From assembly GCA_043811105.1 (NCBI GenBank), contig JBDRNK010000015.1, forward strand, positions 1 to 57,753: a stretch of 57,753 nt of DNA, in the 5' to 3' direction. This DNA comes from Candidatus Uhrbacteria bacterium. GTDB taxonomy: Bacteria; Patescibacteriota; Patescibacteriia; UBA9934; CAZDDW01. Within the stretch, counting starts at the first letter, position 1, and every line of letters begins with the position of its first letter. The notes under the pieces were generated by a model. The model had not been told where the DNA came from and did no database searches. It worked only from the letters and a program-made list of their open reading frames with translations. The translations under genes and the position numbers were made by a program. Shown here in pieces: positions 1 to 57,753 of this stretch.

Positions 1-1472
1 TCCTTGACCTGCGTCTGGTAACCGTCGGGCAGGCTCTGGATGAAAGCATCTATACAGGCCAGCTGTGCCGCATGTTTGATCTCGGCCATGGTCGCGTCCG
101 GTTTGCCAAAGGCGATGTTCTCAGCCACGGTCCCAGTGAACAGGTCCACAGTCTGTGAAACAAAGCCAATTTGGGCTCGGAAAGCAGTCAGGTCGATTTT
201 GCGGATATTCTGGCCATCGATCAGGATGCTCCCAGCATCGGCATCGAAAGCACGTAAGGCCAACTTGACCAAGGTGCTTTTTCCACCACCAGATGGACCA
301 ACAATAGCCAGCATCTTGCCAGGTTCAGCCGCGAAGCTGACTTGATGCAAGGCCTCTCGTCCCGAATCCGGATAGCCAAAGCTGACGTTCTCGAAGGTTA
401 TCGCACCACGCAGGCCGTCAACTGGAATCGGATCACTCGGAACTGAAATGTCTGTATGTGATTTTAACAGCTTGAACAGACGCGAGGCTCCTTCTTGCTG
501 CATGGCAATCCGCCCGTAGTGTTCAACAGCTTGGTTGATCGAACCGAGCAGCTGACCACATAGTGCAATCATTAGCAAAGGTGTGCCAATACTCGTTGTG
601 CCTTCACGCACCTGCCAGAGGCTGATGGCGATGACAACTAAGCTGGCCATGGTCCGGAGCATGCGTTGTTGCCAACTCATCCTGTGAAACTGATTTGCCT
701 CATTCCAAGAGGACTTGAGCAGTGACTCTTGGATCCGTCCAAACTTGTTGCGGATGTTTCGTTCTTGTCCGAACAGAAGCACGGTTGACATGTTAGCCAG
801 AATCTCGTGCAACAAGGATGTTGATTCCTCGTAGCTGTCGAGTTTGTTCTTTCGATCTCGATCTGTCTGTTGAACCGTGCGTTGAGTCAGCCAAGTACTG
901 ATTGGGATCAAAACCAGGAAGATCAGACCGACCCGCCACTCGAAGTAGAAGGCCATGGCTGTAATCAATGGAATGACCACCAACTGTGGGAGCAAGCTGT
1001 AGAAACCGAAATCGGTAATTGCACCGATTGCGTTCGTGCCCTCGTCGACCTGCTTGATGCTAGCCCCAGTCTTGCGATGTTGATGCCAGCCGATCGATTG
1101 TCTGAGCAGAATATCCAGACTGTGGTTTTGCAGCCAGAGATTCAACTTCAAGGTCAGACGCATCGAGGCCCTTCGGGACTTGAACTCGACACCGCCGATG
1201 ATCACGTTAGCACTGAGGAAGGTGACCAACACAACGGCAGCGCAGAGAGCAGTTGCCTGGGAGTCAGTGTCAACGAACTGACGTGCATAATCGAGCGGGA
1301 TGGCCCCGCTGTTCTCTGTACCAGCAAGGATTCCGATTAGATCGAAGATTGTCTTGTACAGAAATTGATTGAACAGTTGCACTAGCTGGGTCAGGATGAT
1401 CAAACCGAATGCGACAGCGATTAGAAATTTGAAAGGACGAACTAGCGCCCAGTACTGTTTCCAGAATTGCAC
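1..1472 (-). CDS. ABC exporter, fused transmembrane + ATP-binding protein (MsbA-like); C-terminal end lies beyond the window
   Basis: The minus strand is open from the window edge to GTG at 1472-1470, with GGAGGA 4 nt upstream. My translation gives a multi-helix TMD (QFWKQYWALVRPFKFLIAVAFGLIIL...) followed by Walker A 'FAAEPGKMLAIVGPSGGGKSTL' around 260-330. It is absent from the ORF track only because no stop lies inside the window. Confidence 0.85.
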   Translation of the reverse strand, partial: MQFWKQYWALVRPFKFLIAVAFGLIILTQLVQLFNQFLYKTIFDLIGILAGTENSGAIPLDYARQFVDTDSQATALCAAVVLVTFLSANVIIGGVEFKSRRASMRLTLKLNLWLQNHSLDILLRQSIGWHQHRKTGASIKQVDEGTNAIGAITDFGFYSLLPQLVVIPLITAMAFYFEWRVGLIFLVLIPISTWLTQRTVQQTDRDRKNKLDSYEESTSLLHEILANMSTVLLFGQERNIRNKFGRIQESLLKSSWNEANQFHRMSWQQRMLRTMASLVVIAISLWQVREGTTSIGTPLLMIALCGQLLGSINQAVEHYGRIAMQQEGASRLFKLLKSHTDISVPSDPIPVDGLRGAITFENVSFGYPDSGREALHQVSFAAEPGKMLAIVGPSGGGKSTLVKLALRAFDADAGSILIDGQNIRKIDLTAFRAQIGFVSQTVDLFTGTVAENIAFGKPDATMAEIKHAAQLACIDAFIQSLPDGYQTQVK

Positions 1473-1530
1473 AGGTTCCTCCGGTTTTGGTGTTTCGAAA
1501 TTGGTTTTCCAGATGTACCGAGAACGCTGA

Positions 1531-1559
1531 ATAATAGCATAAATTAGCACTTTTGTCAA
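1531..1559 (-). promoter_or_regulatory. sigma70-type promoter of the ABC exporter gene
   Basis: On the minus strand: TTGACA (1559-1554), 17 nt, TATTAT (1536-1531). A TAA stop lies just upstream in the gene frame, so the GTG at 1472 is the start. Confidence 0.6.
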
Positions 1560-1601
1560 TTATAGGGGTTGATGATTGGGCTAATTTTAGTTAAGATGTG
1601 T

Positions 1602-1657
1602 GGGAAAGACGCCTGTTAGGGCATCACTAAGATGACACCCTTACGGGTGTCGGTCCC
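1602..1657. repeat. REP doublet (forward + inverted copy)
   Basis: GGGAAAGACGCCTGTTAGGGCATC (1602-1625) and GACACCCTTACGGGTGTCGGTCCC (1634-1657). Same architecture as the REPs flanking the RAYT gene at 32004. Confidence 0.8.
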
Positions 1658-1661
1658 ACGC

Positions 1662-2570: not shown

Positions 2571-2607
2571 AAGGCCACGTTCGAGAGAGCGTGGCTATTT
2601 TGTATTT
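2570..2607. terminator. bidirectional intrinsic terminator
   Basis: GCCACG (2574-2579) pairs with CGTGGC (2590-2595), with T-runs on both strands. It sits between convergent genes. Confidence 0.55.
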
Positions 2608-3098
2608 GATCCGTCTGATCGTTGTTGGGGTTCGATACCGACACGAACAACAGTCGTTTCCTTTGTCTTAGCCAACAGATGAAATCCGATTTGTTGGTCT
2701 TGAGTTGGTTGATTTTGGAAGGTGCTTGAGTCGATCGTTGGAAAGCTCATTGCTGGGCGAAGGCTTGAACGAGCCTGTTCGACCAGAATCAGGTTTCCAA
2801 TCGGTTGTATATCTAGTTCGTTTATCTGTTCGATTTCAACCTGAATCGACTCGACTTGTTCAGTTGCCAGTAGTTCCAGCCAGCATTCACCATTGTCATC
2901 AAGAACTAGTTCTAGATACCTTGGTTCAGAGCCGATCTGTTCGGTATTGAATTTTGGTTGTTCACTAAATGTTGATGGTGGTTGGCACTTGATCTGTTCA
3001 AATTCAGGAATGAACAGAGCCTGACATCCATAGATGCTAAAGCAGACGAACATGTAGCTAGAAAACGCGATGGCAGTGGTACGTATTAACTCTTGCAC
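2595..3098 (-). CDS. hypothetical membrane-anchored protein (GC-rich cassette class)
   Basis: ORF-track frame. I moved the start to GTG 3098, preceded by AGGAGG at 6 nt. N-terminal hydrophobic helix 'TAIAFSSYMFVCFSIYG'. Confidence 0.6.
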   Translation of the reverse strand: MQELIRTTAIAFSSYMFVCFSIYGCQALFIPEFEQIKCQPPSTFSEQPKFNTEQIGSEPRYLELVLDDNGECWLELLATEQVESIQVEIEQINELDIQPIGNLILVEQARSSLRPAMSFPTIDSSTFQNQPTQDQQIGFHLLAKTKETTVVRVGIEPQQRSDGSNTK

Positions 3099-3118
3099 AG
3101 CTTTCCTCCTGGTCAAAG

Positions 3119-3147
3119 AGGATAATACAAAAACAGCGTCGTGTCAA
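3119..3147 (-). promoter_or_regulatory. promoter of 2595-3098
   Basis: Minus strand: TTGACA (3147-3142), N17, TATCCT (3124-3119). It lies directly after a hairpin+T-run that ends the upstream gene 3192-3530. Confidence 0.5.
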
Positions 3148-3191
3148 TTAAAAAGGCCATGCTCAGATGAGTATGGCTGTTTTGTGTCTGG

Positions 3192-3530
3192 CTAAAGGGC
3201 AATCTTCCTGGTCAGGCAGAGAATTGAGAACCACTTCGGGACAACTGGGTTTTTGAAAATGCGATACATCAGCTGGCAGGTGGCCACTTCGGCTTGTTCT
3301 GGCCTGAGTTCCAGACACAGGGTAGCAAAGGCATCGCCCAGAGTCGGATTGAATTCGATTTTGCGTCCAACGATCTGGATCTGATCGAACAGCTCGTCCG
3401 GCAGGTTGAAACCGGGCATGCCGTCTTTTTGACGTTGCCTGAGCATCAACAGAAATGCCTGACGCACCGGTTGTTCCCATCCATTCAGATCAGCTTCGTC
3501 TAGTCCTTTGTTGTCTGATGCAGTGGTCAT
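3192..3530 (-). CDS. hypothetical protein (GC-rich cassette class)
   Basis: 112-aa ORF with 'GGGAGAAGACC' immediately before the ATG. Hairpin GCCAT..ATGGC plus T-run downstream. Confidence 0.6.
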   Translation of the reverse strand: MTTASDNKGLDEADLNGWEQPVRQAFLLMLRQRQKDGMPGFNLPDELFDQIQIVGRKIEFNPTLGDAFATLCLELRPEQAEVATCQLMYRIFKNPVVPKWFSILCLTRKIAL

Positions 3531-3559
3531 GGTCTTCTCCCTTGCAGTCCTGTTTTAGT

Positions 3560-4111
3560 TCACTCAAGCAACCATTCGGCGCAGTCCCAGGGTTTGAGAT
3601 AGAAAGTGATCAAGGCTTCGGCATAGCCACGACCAGGTGGGTCTTTGATCCAACCCTGGTCCAAACGAGTTTGCAAAATCTTACACAAGGTTTCCATCTT
3701 GACATCAGAAGAGCGAATGATCTCATGTGTTGCCCGGTTGAAGCGAAGGTGCCAGCTATGCATCCAGCGATTGTGATCATCTTGATCAGCACACTTACAC
3801 ACCAGGCACGAGCCTACAGTTGCATCTTGATCAGGAATATTCTGATCAGACGACACCCGAATATTTCCATCCAACAGCCACTTAACCATGATCAAAGCTT
3901 GGCGTTGCTCAGCATAGCCTTGCAGTTTGGTCAGTGCATTGATCGCCTGGGAAATATCTTTGGTGTTTTTTTCATGGACTGAAAGCGTTCGAGCCGTCCC
4001 ACTTCCAGGATACATTCTAGCTGTTCGTCTTTGACCGCGCGATGGTGGACGCACAGTCATGCCGTGGAACTGATTTTGAATCAAGGTCAGAGTCGGTGTT
4101 CGTTTTGACAT
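3560..4111 (-). CDS. hypothetical protein (GC-rich cassette class)
   Basis: 183-aa ORF with GGAGAC 7 nt before the ATG and TTGACT/TTGACG -35-like boxes upstream (about 4150-4165). I preferred it over the antisense + ORF 3455-3982, which lacks signals and has an odd Cys/Leu-rich composition. Confidence 0.6.
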   Translation of the reverse strand: MSKRTPTLTLIQNQFHGMTVRPPSRGQRRTARMYPGSGTARTLSVHEKNTKDISQAINALTKLQGYAEQRQALIMVKWLLDGNIRVSSDQNIPDQDATVGSCLVCKCADQDDHNRWMHSWHLRFNRATHEIIRSSDVKMETLCKILQTRLDQGWIKDPPGRGYAEALITFYLKPWDCAEWLLE

Positions 4112-4210
4112 TGTTTGTCTCCAAGGTACAAGATTGCAGAGTACTACTAAATCAGCTTTTCGTCAAGTCAATAGTGTCTAAATCAGATTTTTGGTATACT
4201 TGAATAACAT

Positions 4211-7200
4211 ATGACTCATGGTCAAATAAATAAAATAACCAGGATTCTGATCTTAGGACTGATTTTTGTATTTTGTTATTTTTTGTTTATAGTATTGTCT
4301 AGCGCTTTAACTCCTGCCGCTGATTATTCTGTTAATGACTTAGGAGATGGACAAGATAATTTGGCTGGCGATGGAATTTGTGCCACAGCTGAGGGGGTCT
4401 GTACTTTGCGTGCAGCGATTCAGGAGGCCAACGCTACCATAGGTGCAGAGGTGATTGATTTTGCCGGAATTGATACAACCACGCAGCAAACAATCGGTGT
4501 GATCTCGGATCTACCAAACATAAATGAGCAAGTTACAATTACAGCTGAAGAACAATGGGAGGTTGCAGGTAATCGTCCGGGAATTATATTAACAACCTCG
4601 GCCGGAGCAACTAAAGGTTTTTCAATTGCTGATTCAGCGGATGGAACTAGAATCAGTGGATTGAAAATTCAAGGTTTTTCACAATATGGAATTTATACAG
4701 CTGCTGAAAATGGTTTGTTGGGTATGGATTGTATAGGATCACCGGACGCAAATCAGCGGAATGTTGTGGTTGGTAATTTGGTTGCCGGTATATATCTTGG
4801 TCAGGCTGATAATAATATTATTGCCGGAAACTGGATAGGATTGGATGATGATGGAACAACTTCAAGCCCTAATGGTGGAGGCACTTTGACTCACGCTTAT
4901 GTTGATTTGAATCTTAATAGTTCTGATAACAATGTTATTGGTTATGAGGATGGTGATGATTTTCCGGCTTTTGTTTGTACTGCAGAACAGGCTCGAAATG
5001 TGATTGGCGTTGGTGCATATAATGCAATAAATATTGAAAACAGCTCAACCAAGAATAAGTTTTCCGGAAATTATGTGAATGTTTTACCGGACGGTAGCAA
5101 TTCTGTAGCTTATTCTGCTCGCTGGGGTGTTTTCTTGTTTGAAGCCAGTTATAATTGGATCGGTACAGATGGTGATGGTTCAAATGATGATTTGGAAGGT
5201 AATGTTTTTGGTCCTTTTGCTCTAGGCGGGGTTTATGGAAACAGTAATGGAGCGACTTTTTCCGGAAATCGAATTTCCGGAAATATTTTTGGTGGTGATC
5301 CAACCGGAACTTCGGATTTGTACACAGGGGGCAATGCTGAAGTCGGTATTCGTTTAAGTAATGATGCCCAGAATCATATCATCGGTTTTTGTGATAACAA
5401 TGAGGACGGTTTAATTGGTGATGTTGATATGTGTAGCAACGGTGGAATTGTTGCAGATCAGGCAAATTATTTTATCGGTTTAGCTGGGACTACCGGTGGA
5501 ACCTCAAATGGTGTCATTTTGAGCATTTGGAAAAACAACACCAATAACTATGTTTATGGTAATTACTTTGGTGTAGGAACCGACAGTTCTGCAATCGGGA
5601 ACCATTATGGTATTTCTCTTTTTTATAATCTGTTTGGAACCGGCAACTACTTTACTGTCGGAGATCAAGGAGATCGAGCAAACATTTTCATGAATAATCA
5701 GGTTGGTGTAAATATTGAAAACTCAACTGCTGATGCGGCTCTAATGCAATATGTTAAGGTTCAGTATAATACAATTTCTGAAAACATATCGCACGGTGTT
5801 CAGGTTGTGCGTGGAAAACAAGCTCAGACCGTTGATTCCGCGCATGATATCTTAATCGAAAACAACACGATTACTGACAATGGCGGTTCCGGGGTGTATC
5901 TGAGTGGTAGTACTGCCGATATTATCAATAATACAATCACCGGAAATACCGAATATGGAATCTACGCTGTTAGTACATACGATAATCTGGTATCTACTTA
6001 TGGAAAACAGACTGCGCTTGGTGTGGCATCTGATCTTGTACCGGAACCGTTTAATATAGGGGGCAGTGGCTTAGAGAATACTATTTCCGGAAATCTGCTT
6101 GGCGGAATCTATTTTATGGACACTGAGCCGTCTGATCCGGAGACATTGTACACAAACAATATCTTTGCAGACAATAATTCAGGGCCAGCTATTCGTACAG
6201 CTTGGTGGGGAGCCGTTGAATTGCTTGATACAAGTTTAGATCCAGTAATTCTTGGTTCACATACTATTACTTTAACCCCAGACACCGGTTCAGCCTCGAC
6301 AGGGGCCGTAGCTGATACCGGCGAGTTTGTTGGTGAAAATGATACTGAAAGTGCTTGGGGATCTGATGGTTTTGATTATGATGATCAAACGACATGGTTT
6401 ACTTTGGTTGATTATGAATATGCCACAGATGGTATTTTAACCAATTATAATCCATATACGATTTCGGTTAGCGGTGATAATGCCAACGATGATGTTGTTG
6501 CCAGCTTTATTTTTGATGGTAGCGGTTCAGATATCAGTCAAGGTGGATTACCAGTAGGAATTTCTACAGGATCAGGAATCTATCGTTATCAAATAGCCGA
6601 AGCAGTGGTTTCTTCAATTCCTGATCAGCCAATCAATTTATTGCCAAACAATGGAAAAATAAATGAAGTAACGGTTCCAACTCTTTCCACTTCCGCTTTT
6701 TCCGATAGCTCAGAAACACACAGTTCTACTGCTTGGCGAGTTTATTCAAGCGAAGCGCTTTGTCAAGCGGGTGGAACAGGAGACTTTTATGATTCAGGGT
6801 TCATCTCTGATTTGACTTCGCATCAAGTAACCAGTTATTTGTTGCGAGCCCAAGATTTATGGTGGTCAGTGCAATATAAAAATTCATACGGCAATCTTTC
6901 CACGGCTTCAACTTGTACCTCCTTTAGGATTAGAGCCGGGTCAAATACACCGGTACAGTCAAATACCGGGGAATTTTTGGATGAAGAAAGCCTGCAGGAA
7001 GTGATGGAAGATGTGGAGATAATTGAGGTGAACGGAGAAGATACTGATGAAATTACGATTGATATCGAACCAGAACCCCAGCCAGAATTAAAAGAAGAAT
7101 CAATATTAAGTTTCACTTCCGGCAAATATGTAACTAATCAAGATTATTCTGTGGTATATTATCAAAGTCAAGACAATATTTTGTATCCTTTTTATGATCT

Positions 7201-8755: not shown

Positions 8756-8759
8756 TCAA

Positions 8760-8796
8760 AGTACCTTGCCATGCGGGTAAGGTACTCTTTTTTTTG
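8760..8796 (+). terminator. intrinsic terminator
   Basis: AGTACCTT (8760-8767) pairs with AAGGTACT (8779-8786), followed by a T-run. Confidence 0.7.
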
Positions 8797-49589: not shown

Positions 49590-49659
49590 CCGCCCTGAAC
49601 AAAGGCGGTTTTTTTTGTTGGCCAGCCAAAGTTCTGGTTAAGGCGGGTGGGGTCAGGGC

Positions 49660-49688
49660 TTGACAGCAAGGCTAATTTTAGCTACTAT
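49660..49688 (+). promoter_or_regulatory. cassette promoter
   Basis: TTGACA (49660-49665), N17, TACTAT (49683-49688). Confidence 0.6.
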
Positions 49689-49751
49689 TTATCTCTTCAC
49701 CAATCCTGGTGGAATGTACATACACAACCTCTAGCTAGGGGGAAAGATAAA

Positions 49752-50756
49752 ATGCAATTCGCTGATTACGCAGAGCTGGACAAGCTCGCACGCAGACATC
49801 TGTCCAATAAGGCTGTGAATGAACGGAAAAAGAAAAAGCGTCAGCTTCTAAAAAATGATCACAGGTTAACTTTGAAAACATGGGAGGCACAAGATCTAGG
49901 TGATGAGTTTTCCTGCCAACACGTTTCTGTATATTTTCTATTCTTCATCTTGTCCTTTGCTGCGTCTATTCCTGCCGGGATTGGGCTGGTCTGTGCCGAA
50001 CAGATTTGGGTTAAATTGCTTTGGTTGATGTTGCCAACAGTTATGTTTATACTGAATAGGGTCATTCGGGAAATTAAGGTCATACAGATTCTGAGAAAAG
50101 AATTCGATTTCAAACTACCCAATTTCGACGAATTGAAACCAGCCGAGTACGTAAACATTTACCTCAACGATGAGATTGGGCGATTGCGGGAAGATCTGCT
50201 TGGTAGGACAAGTCAGCTTTCACGAATCAAGGGTCGTTTGGCCAGAACCGACGAGCAAGCACGGACAGTCCGAGCGCAGCTCGAACGTCGTTGTGACGGT
50301 GAGAACACACCTGAATATCTGACCGATGCTCACGAACGTATCCAAGATACCTGTCAGCGGATCGCTGCTAAGCGTGAGACGCTCGACGAGTACACCGCCC
50401 GCATCGAAGCCTTTTTGCGAGAGTGCCAGGCTCAGGTCAAGCGTGTCCAACAGCCCTTGTCCGACCTCGAACTGATTCGTGAGACCAATCGTCTTTGCGA
50501 AGAGACTGAACAACTTGAAATTCGGGCAGCTGCAGTTGTGGTCAGAACGACCTCTGAGCTGACCAGCCGTATGCTCGAAACCAAGAACCGCCTCTACCGT
50601 CAGTTCGAAAGTGCTGGGGTCAGTCTGGCTCTGGCCAGCGCTGAGACAGGTGACGCTCTCAAGAACTTCCAACTTCTCGAATCCACGATCGGCAAGTTCG
50701 TTCCTGCCGATAAGGTTCTCGAAGCCGAATCCGAGGAGACCAGTGCAGCAGGCTGA
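49752..50756 (+). CDS. membrane-anchored coiled-coil protein (cassette 1)
   Basis: I moved the start to ATG 49752, after GGGGGAAAGATAAA. Two TM helices followed by a long heptad-rich C-terminus. Confidence 0.6.
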   Translation: MQFADYAELDKLARRHLSNKAVNERKKKKRQLLKNDHRLTLKTWEAQDLGDEFSCQHVSVYFLFFILSFAASIPAGIGLVCAEQIWVKLLWLMLPTVMFILNRVIREIKVIQILRKEFDFKLPNFDELKPAEYVNIYLNDEIGRLREDLLGRTSQLSRIKGRLARTDEQARTVRAQLERRCDGENTPEYLTDAHERIQDTCQRIAAKRETLDEYTARIEAFLRECQAQVKRVQQPLSDLELIRETNRLCEETEQLEIRAAAVVVRTTSELTSRMLETKNRLYRQFESAGVSLALASAETGDALKNFQLLESTIGKFVPADKVLEAESEETSAAG

Positions 50757-50978
50757 GTCAATCCCTTCCCACCTACCAACACTTCACACCCGCTCCGCCC
50801 GCAGTCCCCAGTAGCTCCATCAGGAGCGTAGGGGGGCAGTCGGTTCTCACCGAGAGTCGTCCATGGGCAGAGGGCGGTCTCACCCTGTACCGACGGCATA
50901 AGCCTTGACCGTCTGGTACAGGGCTTTTTTTATTTTTAACCTTTAGCGTTAAAACGAAGAAGTCGCTTGAAAAGGCGG

Positions 50979-51039
50979 TTTTGAGCAATTAACTCAAGGT
51001 GTTGAAGTCACGAGCCGTGAAGTTGTCAAAGCTCGTCAG
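50979..51039 (+). pseudogene. relic copy of the 3' end of a cassette-2-type gene
   Basis: 61 nt match 51958-52018 with 2 mismatches. It encodes FEQLTQGVEVTSREVVKARQ followed by TGA. Confidence 0.7.
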
Positions 51040-51136
51040 TGATTTGGGGTCAGGCCGGCCTGCCCTGTACCGACGAAGTGCAACGACGTCTGGTACAGGG
51101 GAAACGGGAATCGCTGATAAATTTGGTGACTTACGC

Positions 51137-51165
51137 TTGACGGATAGCCAACATTATGCAAGAAT
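51137..51165 (+). promoter_or_regulatory. cassette promoter
   Basis: TTGACG (51137-51142), N17, AAGAAT (51160-51165). Confidence 0.5.
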
Positions 51166-51208
51166 AAGTTACCGAACCGTAAACAACCAAACTCCACTGG
51201 AGGGAAAA

Positions 51209-52090
51209 ATGATCTGGTGGCCACTTATCACAGCACTGCTTTGCTCGGTATGCGCAATTGGTGGATTGGCTATATTTCGCCGTGCACGTCAAATATCTCT
51301 GAATTCTGTATTTTATAGTGAAGAAGACTTAAAAACTGCTGGAGTAACTATACCCGTTTTCGGACTCGGTATGTTTGGTGCATTACCGATGATAGAACTT
51401 GGGCTACCTTATCTTACCTTTGTTCTCCTCGTTCTCGGAGCTTCGTGCCTGACTCCAGCTACTATTTATGGTATGCGTCAAGCAGAATTGGAACAGAAGT
51501 TTAAGCAACTTCTAGGTGAACAAAGTGAAGCCATCAGAGCAAAGCTGAAAGCCTGGTATCAGAGCTGGCGGGAGCGGGAAAACAAGGTGCTGCGTGATGC
51601 CGGGAGAAAGGCAGATGAACTCTGCGATCTGATTCCTGATGTACCTTGGGAGGAGTTCCGAGGTTTTATCAGACAGGTGGCAAACAACTTTCTGCCCGAG
51701 CTGTACACCCAGGCTCAAGAACTACGAGACGAAGTTGCCCAGGTCGGTGAGATCATCGCCGAGTACAAAGACAAAAAACTCGATGACTTCTCTCGTGGCC
51801 TGCTCGGAAAAAGTGTGGCTGACAAGCAGGAGTTGGAAAAAGCTCTGGCAGAAATCGAGATTCAGATCACAGCCTGCCGTTCTTTCCTCGACCACATCAA
51901 GTCCGACCTGCTGGTGGCTCGCCGACGAGGTACTGGCCTGCCCGAACTTCGAGCTCGTTTTGAGCAATTAACTCAAGGTGTCGAAGCCACGAGCCGTGAA
52001 GTTGTCAAAGCTCGTCAGGAAGTTGATGACATTGGTGATCGACGTGTGGTTAACCTGCCGTCTCATCCTAGACAGCGCACGCCTCAGTGA
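51209..52090 (+). CDS. membrane-anchored coiled-coil protein (cassette 2)
   Basis: I moved the start to ATG 51209, after GGAGGGAAAA. TM helices followed by a coiled coil. Terminator at 52105-52139. Confidence 0.6.
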   Translation: MIWWPLITALLCSVCAIGGLAIFRRARQISLNSVFYSEEDLKTAGVTIPVFGLGMFGALPMIELGLPYLTFVLLVLGASCLTPATIYGMRQAELEQKFKQLLGEQSEAIRAKLKAWYQSWRERENKVLRDAGRKADELCDLIPDVPWEEFRGFIRQVANNFLPELYTQAQELRDEVAQVGEIIAEYKDKKLDDFSRGLLGKSVADKQELEKALAEIEIQITACRSFLDHIKSDLLVARRRGTGLPELRARFEQLTQGVEATSREVVKARQEVDDIGDRRVVNLPSHPRQRTPQ

Positions 52091-52147
52091 TTTATTTCAC
52101 ATCCGCCCCGACTTAATACCAAGTCCGGGGCCTTTTTTATTTATCTC

Positions 52148-52176
52148 TTGACAAAAGGGCTTATTATTGCTAAATT
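52148..52176 (+). promoter_or_regulatory. cassette promoter
   Basis: TTGACA (52148-52153), N17, TAAATT (52171-52176). Confidence 0.6.
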
Positions 52177-52234
52177 TGTATCTTCATCAATTCTGGTGGA
52201 ACGTACATATACAACTCCTAGCTAGGAGGGGAAG

Positions 52235-52834
52235 ATGGAACACACTTCTGTGATCAGTGTTCTCACCGGCTACCTTGCTGGGGGTATTCTCATCATTGGT
52301 TACCTAATATACAACTGGAAGATTTTTAAAGGCACAACAAGACCGAATACTGCCACATGGGCACTTTGGGCATTTATTGTTGGTCTTAACGCTCTAACAT
52401 ACGACAAGATGAGTGCTGACCACATCAAAGCAATTGTCTCTATTGCGAGTGGTGCCTTCTGTATATTCACCTTCCTTTTCTCCTTGTTCACTGGGAAATT
52501 CAAATCACTCGACAGCTGGGACAAGAGTATCTTGGTAATTGGGTTGATCGCTATTGGTGTTTGGTATTACTTTAAAAGTGCTACCTATGCCAATATGTTG
52601 CTCCAGGTGGCAATCGTTATTAGCTTTGTTCCAATCCTTCATAGTGTCTGGAAGGAACCTGATAGCGAGAACTGGCTTCCGTGGATGGTTTGGGTCATTG
52701 CTTACACAGTCTCGATCGTAACAGTCATCATGCGCTGGAACGTTGGTTGGGACATCGTTTATCCCATCAATGGTTTTATCATGCATGGGATCGTTGGCCT
52801 GTTCTCCATTCGACAGACTCGTACCCGCTCCTAA
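52235..52834 (+). CDS. polytopic membrane protein (cassette 3)
   Basis: 199 aa, about 6 TM helices. AGGAGGGGAAG lies directly before the ATG. Terminator CCGCTCCT..AGGAGCGG plus a T-run at 52825-52852. Confidence 0.65.
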   Translation: MEHTSVISVLTGYLAGGILIIGYLIYNWKIFKGTTRPNTATWALWAFIVGLNALTYDKMSADHIKAIVSIASGAFCIFTFLFSLFTGKFKSLDSWDKSILVIGLIAIGVWYYFKSATYANMLLQVAIVISFVPILHSVWKEPDSENWLPWMVWVIAYTVSIVTVIMRWNVGWDIVYPINGFIMHGIVGLFSIRQTRTRS

Positions 52835-52961
52835 ATAAGGAGCGGTTTTTTTATACCACAAAACTTATTTTTAACCCTTAGCGTTAAAACGAAGAACCTT
52901 TGGGGTCAGGCTGGGAAACGGGAATCGCCGCTAAATTTAGCCCAGAATAGACAAGTGTTCC

Positions 52962-52990
52962 TTGACAACAGCTTGTTTTTGTGTTATATT
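52962..52990 (+). promoter_or_regulatory. cassette promoter
   Basis: TTGACA (52962-52967), N17, TATATT (52985-52990). Confidence 0.6.
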
Positions 52991-53061
52991 TCCAAGTCAA
53001 TTCGACCCCGTGACTGGGAAAATGTCGAGATTAAAGTTCATGTACCTTGGAGGATTACAAC

Positions 53062-53373
53062 ATGAGTAGAACAGTTATCACTCTTCCGGATCGAGAAGAG
53101 ATGCTACAGCGTCTCATGCAAGTCAATGACAGGAATCATGTACAGCAGAAGCTCTATCCGATTCTCCTCAACCACGCAGGACAGGAAAAAGTGGCGCAAG
53201 GTATCCCCGTGATGCTTGCTCTGGCCATCAATGACTACACAACGGGTATGCCCGCAGTCGTAGCCGGAATGGTTTGGGATTACGTACCCGCCTGGATCGA
53301 TGCTCTGGTTGACGACCAGGACGTCGCTGCGGAAGCCAAGGCCTTCTTCGAGGCTGCCTTCGCTACTCAGTAG
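53062..53373 (+). CDS. small soluble hypothetical protein (cassette 4)
   Basis: I moved the start to ATG 53062, after GGAGGATTACAAC. Terminator at 53382-53437. Confidence 0.6.
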   Translation: MSRTVITLPDREEMLQRLMQVNDRNHVQQKLYPILLNHAGQEKVAQGIPVMLALAINDYTTGMPAVVAGMVWDYVPAWIDALVDDQDVAAEAKAFFEAAFATQ

Positions 53374-53616
53374 TTTCTCAACCGCCCCACCCATTCGGCC
53401 TTCGAAGCCGCACCTTGGGTAGAGGGCGGCTTTTTTATTTATAGACTAAAAACTAAAAATGGGGTCAGGTCTTGAGTTCGAACCTCAATAGACTAGATAG
53501 TACTGTGGTGCAGGTCTTTGGTTGACTAGTTGCCTCGATCGGACAATCGAACCCAGGGAGATTCTCATCCTCCCCGGGATCATAAAAACCGTCTAGAAAA
53601 ATCTAGCCGGTTTTTA

Positions 53617-53784
53617 TGGTGACCCCAGGGGGAATATAGTCGTGCCGACCATATTGAACTCCTCCGCTCGGAAGACGTTGAATGAATTCAGGTCTTCTCT
53701 CGCTCAGTCGTGCAATCGAACCCAGGGAGTTCTCATCCTCCCTAGGATCACAAAAACCGCCTGGAAGAATCCAGTCGGCTTTTG
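53617..53784. repeat. tRNA-3'-end-like repeat module, copy 1
   Basis: It starts TGGTGACCCCAGGGGGAAT. This is followed by a ~85-nt block almost identical to 55297-55383 (GTCGTGCCGACCATATTGAA...CGTTGAATGAATTCA..GTCTTCTCTCGCTCAGTCG..AATCGAAC). It ends in a bidirectional hairpin. Confidence 0.6.
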
Positions 53785-53993
53785 TGGTGACCTACTGTAT
53801 TGAGAATTGGAACACCATTATCCAACATCTCAAGCAATGGTCAGAAACCTTGCCGCATATTTTGGAAGAAAAAACTTTTGCAATAAATCAACTATAGCAA
53901 GCTCTTTTTGATGGAGATGATTTACAATTCTCTTCATTGGACATCTACTTGTTTTCCAAGGATATATCCCTATTTCTCCGTAACTATTCCAAT

Positions 53994-54620
53994 TTATTCA
54001 CCTTCCGCTAATTTTGCTTGTCGTGCGACGTGTTTCCATTCTTGTGAAGAGAATTTATTTACGATCTCTCCTCCCCAGTTATCTTTATTTTTTGGATCTT
54101 CGTATATTTGCACAGCTGTTTCTGCAAGAGCCGATATAACACCTGGACAATTTTCTTTCATGTAGGCCTGAAAGTTAAATCTCCACGCTTCTTGCAGATC
54201 ATCAGAGAGATCTCCGACAAACTTTGTTTCTTCCTTATCTGTAGCATCGCCCCCAAACTCCGAATCTAACATGCTAAAAACTTCTTTCTTTTCCCTTTGC
54301 ATTTCTTGTGCCTGTTTCCCCGTTGCCTTCCATTGATCTGGGATATCTAATGACTCAATGTTGAGTTCCAGAATTCCCCATTGATGTGCAAAGGCGACTA
54401 ATGGATACCTCTCTTGTATGTCTACCGAGTCGGGGATGCTCGCCGCCATTTCTCCTGTGACTGAATATCTGTTCAGGTCGATATTCATAACTGGATTGTC
54501 GTAACGGCTTGGGGAAGGCGCTATGATGACACCCTCTTGAAATGATGGATTGAACTCTCTATTGGTTTCACGTATCGCATCGGGCGGTGTTTCGCCACCT
54601 CTTCTTCCTTCTTTTGGCAT
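53994..54620 (-). CDS. hypothetical protein
   Basis: 208-aa ORF. No motif recognised. Confidence 0.5.
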   Translation of the reverse strand: MPKEGRRGGETPPDAIRETNREFNPSFQEGVIIAPSPSRYDNPVMNIDLNRYSVTGEMAASIPDSVDIQERYPLVAFAHQWGILELNIESLDIPDQWKATGKQAQEMQREKKEVFSMLDSEFGGDATDKEETKFVGDLSDDLQEAWRFNFQAYMKENCPGVISALAETAVQIYEDPKNKDNWGGEIVNKFSSQEWKHVARQAKLAEGE

Positions 54621-54696
54621 AATATAGAATGATTATGATTTATATGAACAAATTATATCAAATGGGGGGGGTGAAACAAGACTTTTTTGCAAAACG

Positions 54697-54930
54697 TCAA
54701 GAGTGACCTTTTTCCAGTAACTCCAAAATATCTTTCTTCTTATACCGACGATCACCTCGTGTTCCCAAGCGGACGGCAACAAGATTTCCATTCTTGTCCC
54801 AATTACGCAAGGTGTTCGGATGACAATGCAACAAACCAGCCGCCTCTTTGAGAGTCAACAACTCTGGGAGCTTTGTGTCTCGTTGAGTTGACTGATCTTG
54901 CATATTTGATAAGTTACCATAAGTATACAA
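54697..54930 (-). CDS. excisionase/MerR-type helix-turn-helix DNA-binding protein
   Basis: 'LTLKEAAGLLHCHPNTLRNWDKNGNLVAVRLGTRGDRRYKKKDILELL' matches the excisionase-family HTH pattern. Confidence 0.65.
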   Translation of the reverse strand: MYTYGNLSNMQDQSTQRDTKLPELLTLKEAAGLLHCHPNTLRNWDKNGNLVAVRLGTRGDRRYKKKDILELLEKGHS

Positions 54931-55079
54931 ATCTATGCAACCATGGCTGGTACAGGAAGTTTTGATCCAACATCACTATTGATGAAGTTTGACCCTTTGC
55001 TCCTTGGTAAGTTTGCCAAAAAGCAAGAGCTGGATTTTATTATACAGGATAGCGAGGAGGACGAAGACCGTGCCGACCG

Positions 55080-55262
55080 ACGAGGCAGTTGATTACGTGT
55101 TTGGATTCGTTGGAACACTCCCAGAGACATGGATTGACACCGACTTCACACAAAAACAACAGTTACAGAGTTTGATTTTCCCAGAAAAACCCGTGTACAC
55201 CTATTCAGGATTTGAAACACGAGTTTTGTCGCCAATGTTCGCAACAAAAAAGACTCATCATA
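55080..55262 (+). pseudogene. possible C-terminal fragment of a serine recombinase
   Basis: 'WIDTDFTQKQQLQSLIFPEKPVYTYSGFETRVLSPMF' resembles, from memory, the tail of large serine recombinases (..KQrlQklvFPeG..y....yRT..vn.vF). No catalytic domain lies upstream. Confidence 0.3.
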
Positions 55263-55277
55263 TAGATGAGTCCTCTT

Positions 55278-55445
55278 TGGTGACCTCACGGAGAATATGG
55301 TCGTGCCGACCATATTGAATTCCTTCGCTCGGGAGACGTTGAATGAATTCAAGTCTTCTCTCGCTCAGTCGAACAATCGAACTCGCCGAAGTGTCTCATC
55401 CCCATGGAAATCAAAAAGCCGCCGTCCATTTGGACGACGACTTTT
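55278..55445. repeat. tRNA-3'-end-like repeat module, copy 2
   Basis: The first 19 nt, TGGTGACCTCACGGAGAAT (55278-55296), are identical to the 3' end of the adjacent tRNA-Glu gene as read on the + strand. The conserved ~85-nt block follows. It ends in the hairpin GCCGCCGTCC..GGACGACG. Confidence 0.65.
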
Positions 55446-55520
55446 TGGTGACCTCACGGAGAATCGAACTCCGGTTCCAAGGATGAGAACCTTGTGTCCT
55501 AACCACTAGACGATGAGGCC
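55446..55520 (-). tRNA. tRNA-Glu (anticodon CUC), CCA encoded
   Basis: Minus strand: GGCCTCATCGTCTAGTGGTTAGGACACAAGGTTCTCATCCTTGGAACCGGAGTTCGATTCTCCGTGAGGTCACCA. I folded the cloverleaf by hand: 7-bp acceptor, anticodon loop TTCTCAT, T-loop TTCGATT. Confidence 0.9.
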
Positions 55521-55561
55521 ATTTTAGTTTTGTGAGGCAAGTATACTTGTTCATGACCAGT

Positions 55562-55590
55562 TTGTCAATCCTAATTTAAGGTGATACAAT
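55562..55590 (+). promoter_or_regulatory. promoter of a leaderless-type efflux operon
   Basis: TTGTCA (55562-55567), N17, TACAAT (55585-55590), then 9 nt to ATG 55600. No SD. Confidence 0.55.
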
Positions 55591-55599
55591 AATACCAAT

Positions 55600-57429
55600 A
55601 TGCGATTTTATAAGCGTAAATTATTTTGGGTAATTTTTGTAGTAGTTATCGTTGCGATTGGTGGCAGCGTTTATTATTTTACAAAAAGTCCAGAGCAAGA
55701 GATTGTTTCTGCTTTAGTTGAAAAGGGAACTTTGATCCAAACCGTTGAATCAACCGGTGTTGTTGAAGCTGATCGTGAGATCGAGCTAGCTTTTGAAACC
55801 ACTGGAACTGTGGCTGGAATTTTGGTTGAACCTGGCGATGAAGTTATGGCCGGACAACCGTTAATGACTCTTAGCAGTGCCAGTGCTTTGATCGGATTGT
55901 CTCAAGCTCAAGCCACTCTGGATAAAGCTCAAGCAAATCTAAACCAAACATTGGCCGGCGAGTCTGAGGAATCGGTTGGGGTAACTGAAGCACAGCTGGC
56001 TGAGGCCGAGACATTGCTGGCCAAATATCAGACTGATTTAGAAAATGCCAAAGCAGTTTATGCTGTGGCCACAAAGGCAGCTCAAGTAACTGTTGATACT
56101 GAATATGATGACTGGGTAAACACATTGGTTGATAATCAGCAAGATCTAAGCGAGGTTTATGATGATGCTTTGACAATTATGCAGGCGGCAGTGATTAGTG
56201 TTTCCTCAGGTTTAACCGAAGCTGATAATATTATTGGCGTTGAAAATGCTACGTTTAATACAGAGTTTAGAGACTACCTTAGCGTGCTCAATAGTCAATA
56301 TATCATTGATGCTAAAAATTCCTATCCGGTAGCTCGAGCAAAAATGCTTGAGGTTGAGGGCTTGCTTGAGAGTCTGTCTGTAAACTCTCTTGATGCAGAT
56401 ATCGCTGTTGCTGTTGCTGAGACTCGTGAGATGTTAAATCTTGCTTTTGAAACTTTGAATGATACTCGACATGTTCTTGATGCCACTCAGGCCGGAAACG
56501 CTGATTTGTCTGATGCCACATTGAATACTTATAAATCAAACATTGATACCGATCGGGATGCGGTAAATGCGGATCTAGTTGTTTTGAATAATCAAGAGCA
56601 GTTGATCAGCTCGACAACGATTGCTACACAGACTGCAGAGGATAATGCTGAGAATGCATACGAAGCAGCCTATGTTGCTTTAGAACAAGCCCAAGCAACT
56701 GAGGTGGATCAGGTCGCTAAAGCTACTGCTTTGGTAGCAACTCAGACAGCTGCCGTGGCCACAGCAACTGCAAATTTGGTTTACAAAGAAGCTACTCCTC
56801 GTTCAGTGGATACCGCCGCGCTTGAGGCTCAGGTAAAAGAAGCCGGTGCTGCAATGGCCTTGGCTCAGGAAGAATACAATAAGACAATAATTGTTGCTCC
56901 GTTTGCCGGACAAGTGACAGATATTAATTATCAGATTGGTGAACAAGTTTCTTTGAGTACTGTAGCGATTGGAATGCTGGCTATGAATGAATTTCAGATT
57001 GTTACAGATATTGACGAAGCGGATATTATTAAATTGACATTGGACGATCCGGTTGAGATTACTTTTGATGCTTTTGGTGATGATTTAGTTTTCAATGCTC
57101 GTGTAGCAAAAATTAATCCAGCTGAAAAATCTATCGAAGGTGTTGTTTACTATGAAGTAACCGTGTATTTAAACGAGCCGGTTGAACAAATTCGTTCCGG
57201 AATGTCTGCTGATATTATGATTATTACCGAACAGATTGAAGATGTTGTCTTGATTCCGAGTCGTGCCATCTTAACTGAAAATTTTGAAAAATATACTCGA
57301 GTATATGATGGGGATGAAGTTCGACAGCGAATGCTTGAGGTTGGAATTCGTGGAGACGGGGGAGTTACTCAAGTGATTAGTGGTGTAAATGAAGGTGAAG
57401 AGGTGGTGATCACGATTCGGGAGAAATAA
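55600..57429 (+). CDS. efflux transporter periplasmic adaptor (HlyD/MacA family) with an extended coiled coil
   Basis: N-terminal TM anchor, lipoyl-like 'VAGILVEPGDEVMAGQPLMTL', a long Ala/Gln-rich hairpin, and a beta-barrel C-terminus 'VAPFAGQVTDINYQIGEQV'. Confidence 0.8.
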   Translation: MRFYKRKLFWVIFVVVIVAIGGSVYYFTKSPEQEIVSALVEKGTLIQTVESTGVVEADREIELAFETTGTVAGILVEPGDEVMAGQPLMTLSSASALIGLSQAQATLDKAQANLNQTLAGESEESVGVTEAQLAEAETLLAKYQTDLENAKAVYAVATKAAQVTVDTEYDDWVNTLVDNQQDLSEVYDDALTIMQAAVISVSSGLTEADNIIGVENATFNTEFRDYLSVLNSQYIIDAKNSYPVARAKMLEVEGLLESLSVNSLDADIAVAVAETREMLNLAFETLNDTRHVLDATQAGNADLSDATLNTYKSNIDTDRDAVNADLVVLNNQEQLISSTTIATQTAEDNAENAYEAAYVALEQAQATEVDQVAKATALVATQTAAVATATANLVYKEATPRSVDTAALEAQVKEAGAAMALAQEEYNKTIIVAPFAGQVTDINYQIGEQVSLSTVAIGMLAMNEFQIVTDIDEADIIKLTLDDPVEITFDAFGDDLVFNARVAKINPAEKSIEGVVYYEVTVYLNEPVEQIRSGMSADIMIITEQIEDVVLIPSRAILTENFEKYTRVYDGDEVRQRMLEVGIRGDGGVTQVISGVNEGEEVVITIREK

Positions 57430-57430
57430 T

Positions 57431-57753
57431 ATGCCAGATTGCTTAATTGAGGCAAAAAATCTATATAAGGAATATCAGAATGATGAGGTCGTAACAAAGG
57501 TTTTGTTCGACCTCAGTTTTAAAGTTGAGTCAGGGGATTTTGTGGCTTTGATGGGGCCGTCCGGTTCTGGCAAATCAACCCTGATGCATATTTTAGGGTT
57601 TTTGGATCGATTGACTTCTGGTGAATATTTGTTTTTGGGAAAAAATGTGCACGCAATGAATAATGATGAATTAGCTCGAATGCGGCGCGAAGAAGTTGGT
57701 TTTGTTTTTCAATCTTTTAATTTATTAGCCAAAACTTCGGTTTTAGATAATGT
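57431..57753 (+). CDS. MacB/LolD-type ABC transporter ATP-binding protein (5' part only)
   Basis: 'GDFVALMGPSGSGKSTLMHILG' (Walker A) and 'VGFVFQSFNLL'. The frame is open to the window end. Confidence 0.85.
   Translation, partial: MPDCLIEAKNLYKEYQNDEVVTKVLFDLSFKVESGDFVALMGPSGSGKSTLMHILGFLDRLTSGEYLFLGKNVHAMNNDELARMRREEVGFVFQSFNLLAKTSVLDN

Follow-up and report, generated by a model that had tools for sequence, protein, structure and literature searches.

Contig JBDRNK010000015.1, which was analysed over its whole length of 57,753 bp and is referred to as the window, belongs to a metagenome-assembled genome (MAG) of Candidatus Uhrbacteria, a member of the candidate phyla radiation (CPR, Patescibacteria). 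It raises the question why two kinds of genes, which differ in base composition and in the signals for their expression, alternate along the same DNA. A preliminary description had distinguished AT-rich core genes without a Shine-Dalgarno (SD) sequence (class 1) from scattered GC-rich genes with their own promoter, SD sequence and terminator (class 2), and had offered repeated acquisition from a GC-rich donor or a dedicated SD-dependent regulon as explanations. Our analysis leads us to favour, with moderate confidence, a reading in which the class 2 genes are accessory cassettes of a moron-like kind, belong to a laterally circulating pool that uses SD sequences and reside in a core of leaderless or otherwise SD-free genes.

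Gene set and comparison loci

A set of 54 genes was curated from open reading frames (ORFs), upstream strings, Pfam matches and relatives. Class 2 comprised the GC-rich genes listed previously and additionally 11418-12086 on the minus strand, which belongs there and had been left off, giving 20 genes; class 1 comprised the other 34. The overall GC content of the window was 42.7% and the cumulative GC skew rose monotonically, so that the plus strand behaves as the leading strand. Comparisons were made with a near-identical strain (assembly GCA_043807295.1), with a closer relative (locus L006) whose core proteins are 83-94% identical to those of the window, and with more distant relatives reached via MgtE (L002, L003 and L004, with 81%, 75% and 60% amino acid identity). 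Three lineages (L012, L014 and L016) served to compare the ABC exporter gene at the left end with its neighbour AstE. A metagenome scan with glycerate kinase for relatives of the left part yielded one locus only, at 41%.

Base composition and codon usage

In windows of 500 bp the GC content varied between 0.31 and 0.63, with the steepest step (0.34 to 0.63) at 35.5 kb, and the GC content at third codon positions (GC3) of the curated genes spanned 0.24-0.74. Pooled class 2 genes (GC1 0.576, GC2 0.391, GC3 0.513) exceeded pooled class 1 genes (0.524, 0.362 and 0.335, respectively) by 0.05, 0.03 and 0.18 at the three codon positions; amino acid usage shifted as well, and with a GC content of 0.49 as compared to 0.41 their composition is unlike that of their neighbours. 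The ratios of these shifts resemble those between genomes about 10% GC apart, a comparison which is our own and was not computed. The division into two sharply different classes proposed previously stands with respect to the heterogeneity, but not with respect to its sharpness. GC3 forms a right-skewed continuum for which one- and two-component Gaussian fits gave equal values of the Bayesian information criterion, and a one-component fit was favoured for the overall GC content per gene. The per-gene distributions, which had been suggested as a check, showed no clear bimodality among the window genes; the only bimodal measure was C/(C+T) at two-fold degenerate NNY codons, with modes at 0.22 and 0.50.

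The largest codon shifts from class 1 to class 2 led from NNT to NNC (TTC from 0.18 to 0.54, TAC from 0.23 to 0.61, ATC from 0.24 to 0.53). The effective number of codons was 54.6 in class 2 and 49.6 in class 1 (p = 0.002), which means that codon bias is weaker in class 2, and the frequency of NNC codons of only about 50% indicates that a bias was lost rather than a preference acquired. In codon usage, class 2 genes were also further apart from one another than class 1 genes. The genomic signature differed likewise: the dinucleotide distance delta* was 0.105 +/- 0.008 between the classes and 0.033 +/- 0.009 within class 1 (equal-sized sets, GC-normalised), and the correlation of TETRA z-scores was 0.31 between the classes compared to 0.53 within class 1. 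The correlation was 0.18 between halves of class 2 and 0.38 between equal-sized class 1 sets. Thirteen of the 20 class 2 genes are located on the lagging strand as compared to 8 of 34 in class 1 (p = 0.004), and class 2 proteins are shorter (median 210 aa versus 258 aa for the other genes). Neither the stronger bias nor the co-orientation with replication expected for translational optimisation was found in class 2. Weaker bias, heterogeneity, the shift at first and second codon positions and the excess on the lagging strand together argue against a native class of highly expressed genes and for a heterogeneous, foreign-like pool.

Shine-Dalgarno sequences, terminators and promoters

The composition of the genes is associated with their expression signals. 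GC3 correlated with the predicted SD/anti-SD pairing energy in the window (Spearman rho -0.58, p = 4e-6) and, for 98 genes called automatically in eight loci, in relatives as well (rho -0.41, p = 3e-5). The strong SD sequences ascribed to class 2 were recovered: 15 of the 20 genes, but only 2 of 34 class 1 genes, are preceded by an SD sequence with dG <= -7 kcal/mol, although the class labels are partly based on the SD sequence and the rank correlation is therefore the unbiased figure. Private intrinsic terminators, detected as a hairpin with a T-run by an energy-based finder, follow 15 of 19 class 2 genes (17 of 19 with two extra cases caught only by a stricter finder) and 11 of 34 class 1 genes (Fisher p = 0.0016), again as described before, and the quoted pre-start strings are indeed present at 3530, 36065 and 42145.

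The promoters are less uniform. A TTGAC(N) promoter with a spacer of 16 or 17 nt was recognisable upstream of about 8-10 of 16 class 2 transcription units, so that the earlier assignment of a TTGAC-N17 promoter to each unit applies to these and not to the rest, including gene 48957, which starts 19 nt after murF. Six of the ten best exact TTGACA matches in the window precede class 2 genes. No enrichment of promoter-like matches relative to shuffled sequences was seen for two of the three thirds of the window, and the class 2 promoters are heterogeneous, about half of them being weak.

In orthologous class 2 leaders the SD sequence is kept despite indels and substitutions around it. Conservation of this element within an otherwise diverging leader suggests that it is read by the host ribosome, and would argue that the lineage retains a functional anti-SD. 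An anti-SD motif was seen in only 48% of Parcubacteria in one survey (PMC9297842). The start of the longest ORF is probably wrong at 9580/9715, 49647/49752, 50999/51209, 26990/26999 and 53047/53062, where a start further downstream, preceded by a -10 box or an SD sequence, is better supported.

Class 2 genes in variable slots of a conserved core

The core order 12419, 14078, 17376, 18080, RNR, CobA, MgtE, DUF5665, 27710, 29857 and 32617 is kept in L002, L003 and L004, and none of the class 2 genes within this span has a homologue in these three loci. The RNR and CobA genes abut in L002, and in the window 22163-23625 lies between them, which is the arrangement by which moron insertions are recognised. 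The slots between MgtE and CobA, 26623 and 27710, and 27710 and 29857, as well as the one upstream of 12419, are filled in L002, L003 or L004 with unrelated GC-rich genes or with GC-rich DNA free of ORFs. The unrelated genes often carry GGAGG. Upstream of the 12419 homologue they were found in L002 and L004 in place of 11418-12086, and in L002 the slot of 24680-25468 holds an unrelated GC-rich gene in opposite orientation. Between AstE and DUF7670, where the window contains 2595-7567, L014 has a single ORFan and lacks the 2595-4111 genes. In L006 the GATase gene abuts DsbD, and the 6.5-kb island 34064-40573 of the window is absent.

Other class 2 units are shared with relatives. The L006 homologues of 41423, 29250, the HD_4 gene 26999 and 48957 are syntenic and 74-89% identical; the HD_4 gene (83% aa identity) has conserved -35 and SD elements, and the 29250 orthologue (74% aa) a conserved SD sequence and a changed -10 element. 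Gene 41423 is syntenic in L010 as well, and the order GATase, 41423 homologue, PaaX_M was assembled in L006, L007, L008 and L010. The ABC exporter gene is located divergently beside AstE in L012, L014 and L016. In the four lineages its GC3 is 0.61-0.71 and both TTGACA-17-TATTAT and GGAGGA...GTG are conserved, the leader between them being variable; AstE of the same lineages has a GC3 of 0.32-0.43 and no SD sequence. The preliminary description had named conservation and synteny of class 2 genes across related genomes as evidence against its proposal, and this is in part what was observed, for ABC in four lineages and for 41423, 29250 and HD_4 in L006.

Selection and divergence

Class 2 ORFs are real genes. 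Their ratios of nonsynonymous to synonymous divergence (dN/dS) relative to orthologues are 0.10-0.36, with HD_4 (0.10) and 29250 (0.36) as the extremes in the comparison with L006, and indicate purifying selection; core genes have values of 0.03-0.18. The divergence of class 2 genes is decoupled from that of the backbone. Relative to the near-identical strain, 3.2 kb from PBP2 to murF contain 1 mismatch and gene 48957 contains 22, and 22163 has a nucleotide identity of 87% (dS 0.40) next to RNR with 97% (dS 0.13). Between species, dS was 0.27 for 41423 and about 0.7-0.9 for its neighbours, and 0.57-1.03 for ABC versus 1.16-2.32 for AstE. The simplest reading of this decoupling would be that alleles or cassettes are exchanged among related lineages.

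Homologues and families

Comparison of the class 2 proteins with Pfam, PHROG, PADLOC and NCBIfam revealed nothing beyond ABC, HD_4 and coiled-coil noise. Their designation as hypotheticals is appropriate for most of them. It does not apply to 1-1472, an ABC exporter with Pfam ABC_membrane and ABC_tran domains, and to 26999-27646 with its HD_4 domain. Homologues end at close relatives: of 5.8 billion clustered proteins, two are homologous to the 41423 family, and the 22163/22912/24680 family has four homologues, or 27 in a HMMER profile search of 1.84 billion representatives. Past relatives of 81-83%, the ABC gene yields generic ABCB matches of about 33%. Structure prediction for the 41423 family gave a mean pLDDT of 37. 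For the 48957-53373 array no similarity to phages, plasmids or IMG/VR sequences was found.

Origin of the class 2 genes

If class 2 genes are cassettes of a circulating pool, the backbone (about 64% of bases, GC3 about 0.34) would represent the vertically inherited and syntenic part of the genome, in which starts lack an SD sequence. In first genes of the backbone the ATG is often preceded, at a distance of 6-10 nt, by a -10 box, which may be extended, and internal genes have an A/T-rich upstream region without SD sequence. The genes read as cassettes (about 22% of bases) are short and lineage-restricted single genes or small operons in either orientation, and each would bring a sigma-70 -35/-10 promoter, a leader of 25-70 nt from the predicted transcription start site with a GGAGG SD sequence, and an intrinsic terminator. 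With such portable signals, expression would not depend on where a cassette is inserted. The pool would move laterally among related Uhrbacteria and would ultimately derive from GC-richer, SD-using organisms or elements. The GC excess would then be a signature of the pool which decays slowly or is repeatedly re-imported, and not a product of codon optimisation.

Several observations weigh against such a pool. No donor was found in phage, plasmid, IMG/VR and PHROG collections (IMG/VR gave one coiled-coil match of 23%), and most class 2 units lack an integrase, a nearby recombinase or flanking repeats, with no insertion mechanism being evident. The shift at third positions is asymmetric, as the increase is larger for C than for G, and GAG, GCG, CCG and CGG remain flat, which is unlike what a generic high-GC donor would yield. 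Promoter and untranslated region (UTR) DNA flanking class 2 genes has mostly background GC (0.33-0.41), and there are accessory genes which are AT-rich and devoid of SD sequences (15219-17123, 34322-35488, 36816-40545). Several units are old, syntenic within the clade and have kept their GC3, namely ABC in four lineages and 41423 in three (0.60, 0.59 and 0.60). Substitution directions were polarised by parsimony, which is biased and inflates the counts at these divergences: for 41423, 27 GC-to-AT and 23 AT-to-GC changes were obtained, so that simple amelioration, for which about 0.74 is expected with decay towards 0.35, is rejected for this gene (binomial p = 0.002), and for third positions of ABC the counts were 114 GC-to-AT and 51 AT-to-GC, the excess being strongest in the two lineages whose background GC is lowest. 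The suggestion of repeated acquisition from a GC-rich donor is accordingly supported by the variable slots, the restricted distribution, the foreign-like and heterogeneous composition, the weaker codon bias, the random orientation of the units and the GC-to-AT excess of ABC, but not by the donor search, the age and synteny of several units and the lack of amelioration in 41423.

Class 2 might instead be a native class of genes with high or conditional expression, an SD regulon in which promoters and SD sequences are strong, terminators are efficient and C-ending codons are under translational selection. The dominance of NNT-to-NNC shifts with flat GAG, GCG, CCG and CGG would fit such a class, as would the lower interspecies dS of 41423 and ABC (with a lower dN for ABC, too), the stable GC3 and balanced substitution directions of 41423, the background GC of flanking non-coding DNA and the promoter and SD sequence of ABC conserved in four lineages. 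Promoter/5'UTR modules are also shared, and the 10-mer TGGGGTCAGG occurs in five copies at class 2 junctions; the dedicated regulon suggested in the preliminary description is, however, recognisable only locally, in two pairs of the 48957-53373 array with common modules and in the recurrence of TGGGGTCAGG. Selected native genes are difficult to reconcile with a weaker codon bias, more heterogeneous codon usage and TETRA profiles, NNC codons at only about one half, and enrichment on the lagging strand, and equally with shifts in GC1, GC2 and amino acid usage, a dN/dS above that of the core for most class 2 genes and promoters of which about half are weak. In addition, these genes are ORFans which in relatives are swapped for unrelated genes, and we consider a native class unlikely. 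A GC excess made in place by GC-biased gene conversion, with the slots acting as recombination hot spots and the signals meeting the needs of independent transcription, would account for the recombination-type mosaic of mismatches clustering in 22163 and 48957 of the near-identical strain, for the GC shift at all three codon positions and, as an equilibrium, for the stable GC3 of 41423. The GC3 difference of 0.18-0.40, however, seems too large; effects of GC-biased gene conversion reported in bacteria amount to a few percent. Promoters and UTRs lying within these slots do not share the high GC content, the increase on the coding strand is unequal for C and G, the net flux in ABC runs from GC to AT, and comparable slots hold the AT-rich accessory genes 15219-17123 and 34322-40545, all of which render gene conversion improbable.

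Little credence can likewise be given to a recent and direct acquisition from a distant GC-rich donor, be it a host bacterium or a phage. The atypical composition and genomic signature, the absence of the units from more distant relatives and the remnant of a tRNA-linked element adjoining one cluster would be expected in this case, but orthologues of the same composition extend across a core dS of about 0.8 or more, no homologue outside the clade was found among the 5.8 billion proteins and none in phage and plasmid collections, and the codon usage is unlike that of a typical high-GC genome. A chimeric assembly or a bin of two organisms has hardly any probability, as nothing but the compositional mosaic itself suggests it. 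The same interleaving was observed in independent assemblies from different samples (L006, L007, L008 and L010; AstE-ABC in L012, L014 and L016), which makes the dichotomy a property of the clade and rules out chimerism, and the switches fall at gene boundaries and at common bidirectional terminators.

Features of the window

The class 2 units and the further features discussed below are compiled in Table 1.

Table 1. Coordinates of class 2 units, leaderless-type starts and element-like features in the window.
Feature	Position	Strand	Characteristics
ABC exporter (gene 3-1472), runs off the window	3-1559	-	TTGACA-17-TATTAT at 1531-1559, ~59-nt leader, start context GGAGGAACCTGTG
Operon 3560-4111 and 3192-3530; single gene 2595-3116 (start uncertain)	2595-4111	-	SD sequences GGAGA and GGGAGAAGACC
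Secreted coiled-coil protein	7997-8786	+	GC3 0.51, SD GGAGGAGAGAG, terminator 8760-8786; no family match
Candidate ~700-nt structured RNA	8850-9556	+	GC 0.57, ORF-free, intrinsic terminator 9525-9552
Signal-peptide protein 11418-12086 and terminator	11379-12086	-	GC3 0.48, NNY C/(C+T) 0.67, SD AAGGAGG with dG -11.2
Operon of two paralogues, 22912-23625 and 22163-22915	22141-23625	-	Bidirectional terminator common with RNR gene
Unit 24680-25468	24640-25524	-	TTGACT-16-TAAGAT promoter, terminator
HD_4 (RelA/SpoT-type hydrolase domain) protein 26999-27646	26999-27665	+	Pfam HD_4 3e-13, partial match to TIGR00691, GC3 0.51, terminator
Unit 29250-29759	29216-29830	-	TTGACT promoter, GGAGG SD, terminator
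Small-protein genes 35535-35732, 35841-36065, 36355-36633	35498-36651	-	Own SD each; terminators of one family, GAGGACG..CGTCCTCCCTTTTCTC
Unit 41423-42145	41371-42242	-	TTGACA-17-TATAGT, ~68-nt leader, SD GGAGAGAAGAC, terminator with 13-bp stem
Five-unit array 48957-49589, 49752-50756, 51209-52090, 52235-52834, 53062-53373	48957-53440	+	Own terminators; four units with TTGAC(A/G)-17
tRNA-Glu(CTC) and putative integrative-element remnants	53455-55520	-	tRNA at 55446-55520; downstream of the array
Leaderless-type start, class 1	4192-4213	+	TGGTATACT + 10 nt + ATG 4211
Leaderless-type start, glycerate-kinase-like gene	9695-9717	+	TGGTATAAT + 7 nt + ATG 9715
Leaderless-type start, DUF5665 gene	26833-26855	-	TGCTATTAT + 9 nt + ATG 26835
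Leaderless-type promoter	55562-55602	+	TTGTCA-17-TACAAT (with TG) + 9 nt + ATG 55600
MITE-like element	12280-12421	+	141 bp, between TATAAT (12265-12270) and ATG of gene 12419
MITE-like element, second copy	17943-18082	+	Between TATTAT promoter and ATG of exonuclease gene 18080

The ABC exporter gene has a GC3 of 0.61 and a promoter score of 11/12. The genes at 2595-4111, with a GC3 of 0.41-0.59 and terminators after 3192 and 2595, have no matches in Pfam, PHROG or PADLOC. The proteins encoded by 22912-23625 and 22163-22915 are paralogous (E = 2e-17). The three small-protein genes at 35498-36651 are very GC-rich (GC 0.57-0.64, GC3 up to 0.74) and form part of the 34064-40573 island, which otherwise consists of very AT-rich genes. 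These AT-rich genes are 34322-35011, with a weak match to ATP-grasp peptide maturases (TIGR04192, 9e-8, below cut-off), 35120-35488 and two paralogues of 620 aa which are 51% identical; this arrangement could be a graspetide-like peptide-modification locus.

Within the 48957-53373 array, the upstream regions of 49752 and 52235 align in 118 columns, which begin ahead of the TTGACA, extend as far as the ATG and have a mean column identity of 83%, and the ORFs behind them are unrelated. Common upstream blocks were also found for 51209 and 53062, and gene 51209 is in addition preceded by a 69-nt copy of its own 3' end. The 10-mer TGGGGTCAGG has five exact copies, all on the plus strand (24472, 49648, 51045, 52901 and 53460), as compared to about 0.1 expected by our estimate. 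Four of these are at junctions of the array and one is near 24680; three lie 2-3 nt before a -35 hexamer. Eight bases of the 10-mer (TGGGGTCA) are matched on the opposite strand by a fragment at 53617 which resembles the 3' acceptor end of a tRNA. TGGGGTCAGG may be the site of a regulator or the core of a recombination site.

The tRNA-Glu gene downstream of the array is the sole Rfam match in the window. The last 19 nt of its 3' end are repeated at 55278-55296, 168 bp away, and the region contains a 140-nt repeat (53617-53756 and 55278-55417, 81%), 63-nt repeats at 53562 and 53730 and an ORF for an HTH_17 excisionase-like protein (54697-54930 on the minus strand, 8e-11). No integrase or recombinase was found in this region; ORF 54989-55318, which is without Pfam match, may be the remnant of a recombinase. 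Taken together, 53455-55520 looks like decayed tandem integrative elements, and adjacency to a tRNA gene together with a repeat of its 3' end, as known for integrative islands, was found in the window only at 53455-55445. Integron cassettes were considered for the class 2 units and rejected, as no integrase was found and the units, which occur dispersed over both strands, have promoters of their own and terminate in a hairpin and a T-run.

An IS200-like Y1 transposase gene is located at 31971-32543 (Y1_Tnp, 5.7e-7), with palindromes GACGCCCGTAAGGGCGTC resembling repetitive extragenic palindromic (REP) sequences on both sides (31870-32616; also at about 1600). The region 31870-32616 thereby represents an arrangement of REP-like elements and a REP-associated tyrosine transposase (RAYT). 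The transposase gene is absent at the corresponding position in L002 and L006. Two families of intergenic palindromes were observed in addition, CCAACCTTTAAGGTTGG at 8854-8870, 12154-12170 and 24516-24531, and GGGATCGACAAGCGTAAGCTTGTC at 10994-11018, 25579-25606 and 36747-36774; some palindromes of both families double as terminator-like hairpins.

The ORF-free stretch 8850-9556 is predicted to fold with a minimum free energy of -328 kcal/mol and a z-score of -9.7 on the plus strand, versus -4.7 on the minus strand. It has no Rfam match with E <= 1 and no homologue was found; a permissive scan of 8700-9650 gave spurious miRNA matches. GC-rich (0.49-0.56) stretches of 0.9-2.4 kb without ORFs also occur in variable slots of relatives (L014:796-1695, L003:1000-2000, L002:7250-9700). 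Several 500-nt windows of these have z-scores of about -4 to -7, compared to about -0.3 to -2.6 for most coding controls (41423 sense, -4.0), and they show no similarity to one another or to 8850-9556. Rfam searches of the relatives' loci gave zero matches. A possibility of low probability, linked to the two initiation regimes considered under Implications, is that such GC-rich stretches of the clade, for example 8850-9556, encode a set of large, fast-evolving structured RNAs.

Leaderless-type starts and MITE-like elements

Six leaderless starts had been quoted for class 1 genes. Those at 4211, 9715, 26835 on the minus strand and 55600 are retained here, and no gene begins at 12280 or 17943. 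In the protein translated from 9715, residue 22 is the first of the DUF4147 domain, the L003 homologues of the DUF5665 gene have TAAAAT + 9 nt, and genes 27710 and 43052 display the same architecture of a -10 box without SD sequence. In the window and relatives taken together, -10-like hexamers 6-9 nt before the ATG were found for 18 of 77 first genes with a weak SD sequence and for 1 of 28 with a strong one. The designation as a leaderless-type genome thus suits roughly one first gene in four; core genes in internal positions lack an SD sequence without being leaderless. Two of the leaderless promoters, at 12263-12282 and 26833-26855 on the minus strand, do share the string of 21 nt reported earlier, GCTAT(A/T)ATATACAC(G/A)ATATG, which could result from duplication or convergence.

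Positions 12280 and 17943 mark two elements resembling miniature inverted-repeat transposable elements (MITEs). Their terminal inverted repeats form a 25-bp helix, perfect in one copy and with a small internal loop in the other, and an ATG is present at both junctions of each copy. The left ATG is followed by CCCGGTAG(N)A(N)AACTTTGAA (repeat form CCCGGTAG..TTTGAA), the reverse complement of which ends at the real ATG (12419 or 18080). Folding energies are -54.1 kcal/mol (z -7.6) for the 12280 copy and -56.8 kcal/mol (z -6.7) for the 17943 copy, and beyond the terminal repeats the two have little similarity. In relatives, the homologues of 12419 and 18080 have a -10 box directly before the ATG. 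The inverted repeats, the ATG at both junctions and the adjacency of -10 box and ATG in relatives point to MITE-like insertions which separated a leaderless promoter from the start codon belonging to it. The ATGs at 12280 and 17943 would accordingly be left junctions, the preliminary description having read an orphaned promoter with a duplicated ATG, and the insertions would turn formerly leaderless genes into genes with a hairpin leader of about 140 nt. Neither further copies in the fetched loci of relatives nor a cognate transposase were found, and a permissive Rfam scan of 12150-12470 gave spurious miRNA matches only. A riboswitch at 12280 and 17943 was rejected, as only the terminal repeats are conserved between the copies and the element is absent in relatives.

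Comparison with known systems

Morons were described as units of "more DNA" in lambdoid and Mu-like phages which carry their own promoter and a factor-independent terminator (PMC4378225). Like them, class 2 units are single ORFs or small groups with a terminator and, in about half of the cases, a recognisable promoter, lie between genes that are adjacent in relatives and differ from their neighbours in composition, and neither kind of unit shows an evident mechanism of acquisition. Unlike morons, class 2 units reside in the backbone of a CPR chromosome, are GC-richer and are led by an SD sequence beside leaderless or non-SD neighbours. As these neighbours are genes with cellular housekeeping functions (RNR, MurF, PBP2, RarA and MgtE) and PHROG matches are absent, the units may work in a moron-like manner without being morons in the strict sense.

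Islands of horizontal gene transfer (HGT), as well as genes transferred individually, are documented for Patescibacteria, with exchange mostly within the group (PMC12455944). Class 2 resembles them in its variable content at fixed core slots, in the apparent within-group exchange, in many hypothetical genes and in one cluster beside a tRNA gene with a 3'-end repeat. Variable gene content at fixed slots is also characteristic of replacement-type flexible genomic islets. In contrast to islands and islets, class 2 consists mostly of single genes every few kb without integrases or flanking repeats, and to our knowledge a systematic link to SD sequences and private terminators is not part of their descriptions.

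Group C of GeneMarkS-2 comprises bacterial genomes with leaderless transcription, in which atypical genes, usually GC-poorer, are presumed to be horizontally acquired (PMC6028130). Such genomes share with the window a Pribnow box about 6-10 nt before the starts of first genes and a minority of genes with atypical GC content. Their remaining genes, for example those internal to operons, are modelled with a ribosome binding site, whereas internal core genes of the window lack SD sequences; here, these are almost confined to the atypical genes, which moreover are GC-richer. Tsurumaki et al. 2022 described reduced anti-SD detection in Parcubacteria and placed Uhrbacteria in "Parcubacteria 1" (PMC9297842). 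Most genes of the window agree with this in lacking an SD sequence, but a subset keeps conserved consensus SD sequences. The amelioration of horizontally acquired genes was reportedly modelled by Lawrence and Ochman. In agreement with such a model, atypicality is strongest at third positions and ABC has an excess of GC-to-AT changes; at variance with it, the presumably acquired genes are GC-richer, 41423 shows no drift and the signature persists across lineages. HGT islands, atypical genes, leaderless genomes and morons are each known, but we have not seen their combination described, namely GC-richer accessory genes which nearly monopolise SD sequences and private terminators in a non-SD genome.

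Implications

A stronger claim, to which we assign a low probability, would be that two regimes of translation initiation operate in one cell of Uhrbacteria, and perhaps of other Parcubacteria, with a leaderless or SD-independent inherited core, a separate and tunable SD/anti-SD channel for the GC-rich, laterally circulating cassettes of the flexible genome with their portable promoter, 5'UTR/SD and terminator modules, and a difference in composition that is actively maintained and no decaying relic. The conserved SD sequences also bear on the question whether Parcubacteria, which rarely use SD sequences, keep a working anti-SD, and as far as these leaders can indicate, the answer would be yes for this lineage. 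The usual polarity is reversed in that accessory genes are GC-richer than the core, and gene finders trained on the bulk of the genome will misplace starts, as at 9580/9715, 49647/49752 and 50999/51209. If class 2 genes are cassettes of a circulating pool, an SD sequence and a private terminator alone would separate the flexible from the inherited genome in a CPR lineage and provide a cheap annotation handle for its large hypothetical fraction. The cassettes would then constitute natural plug-and-play expression units in organisms which are beyond present genetic manipulation.

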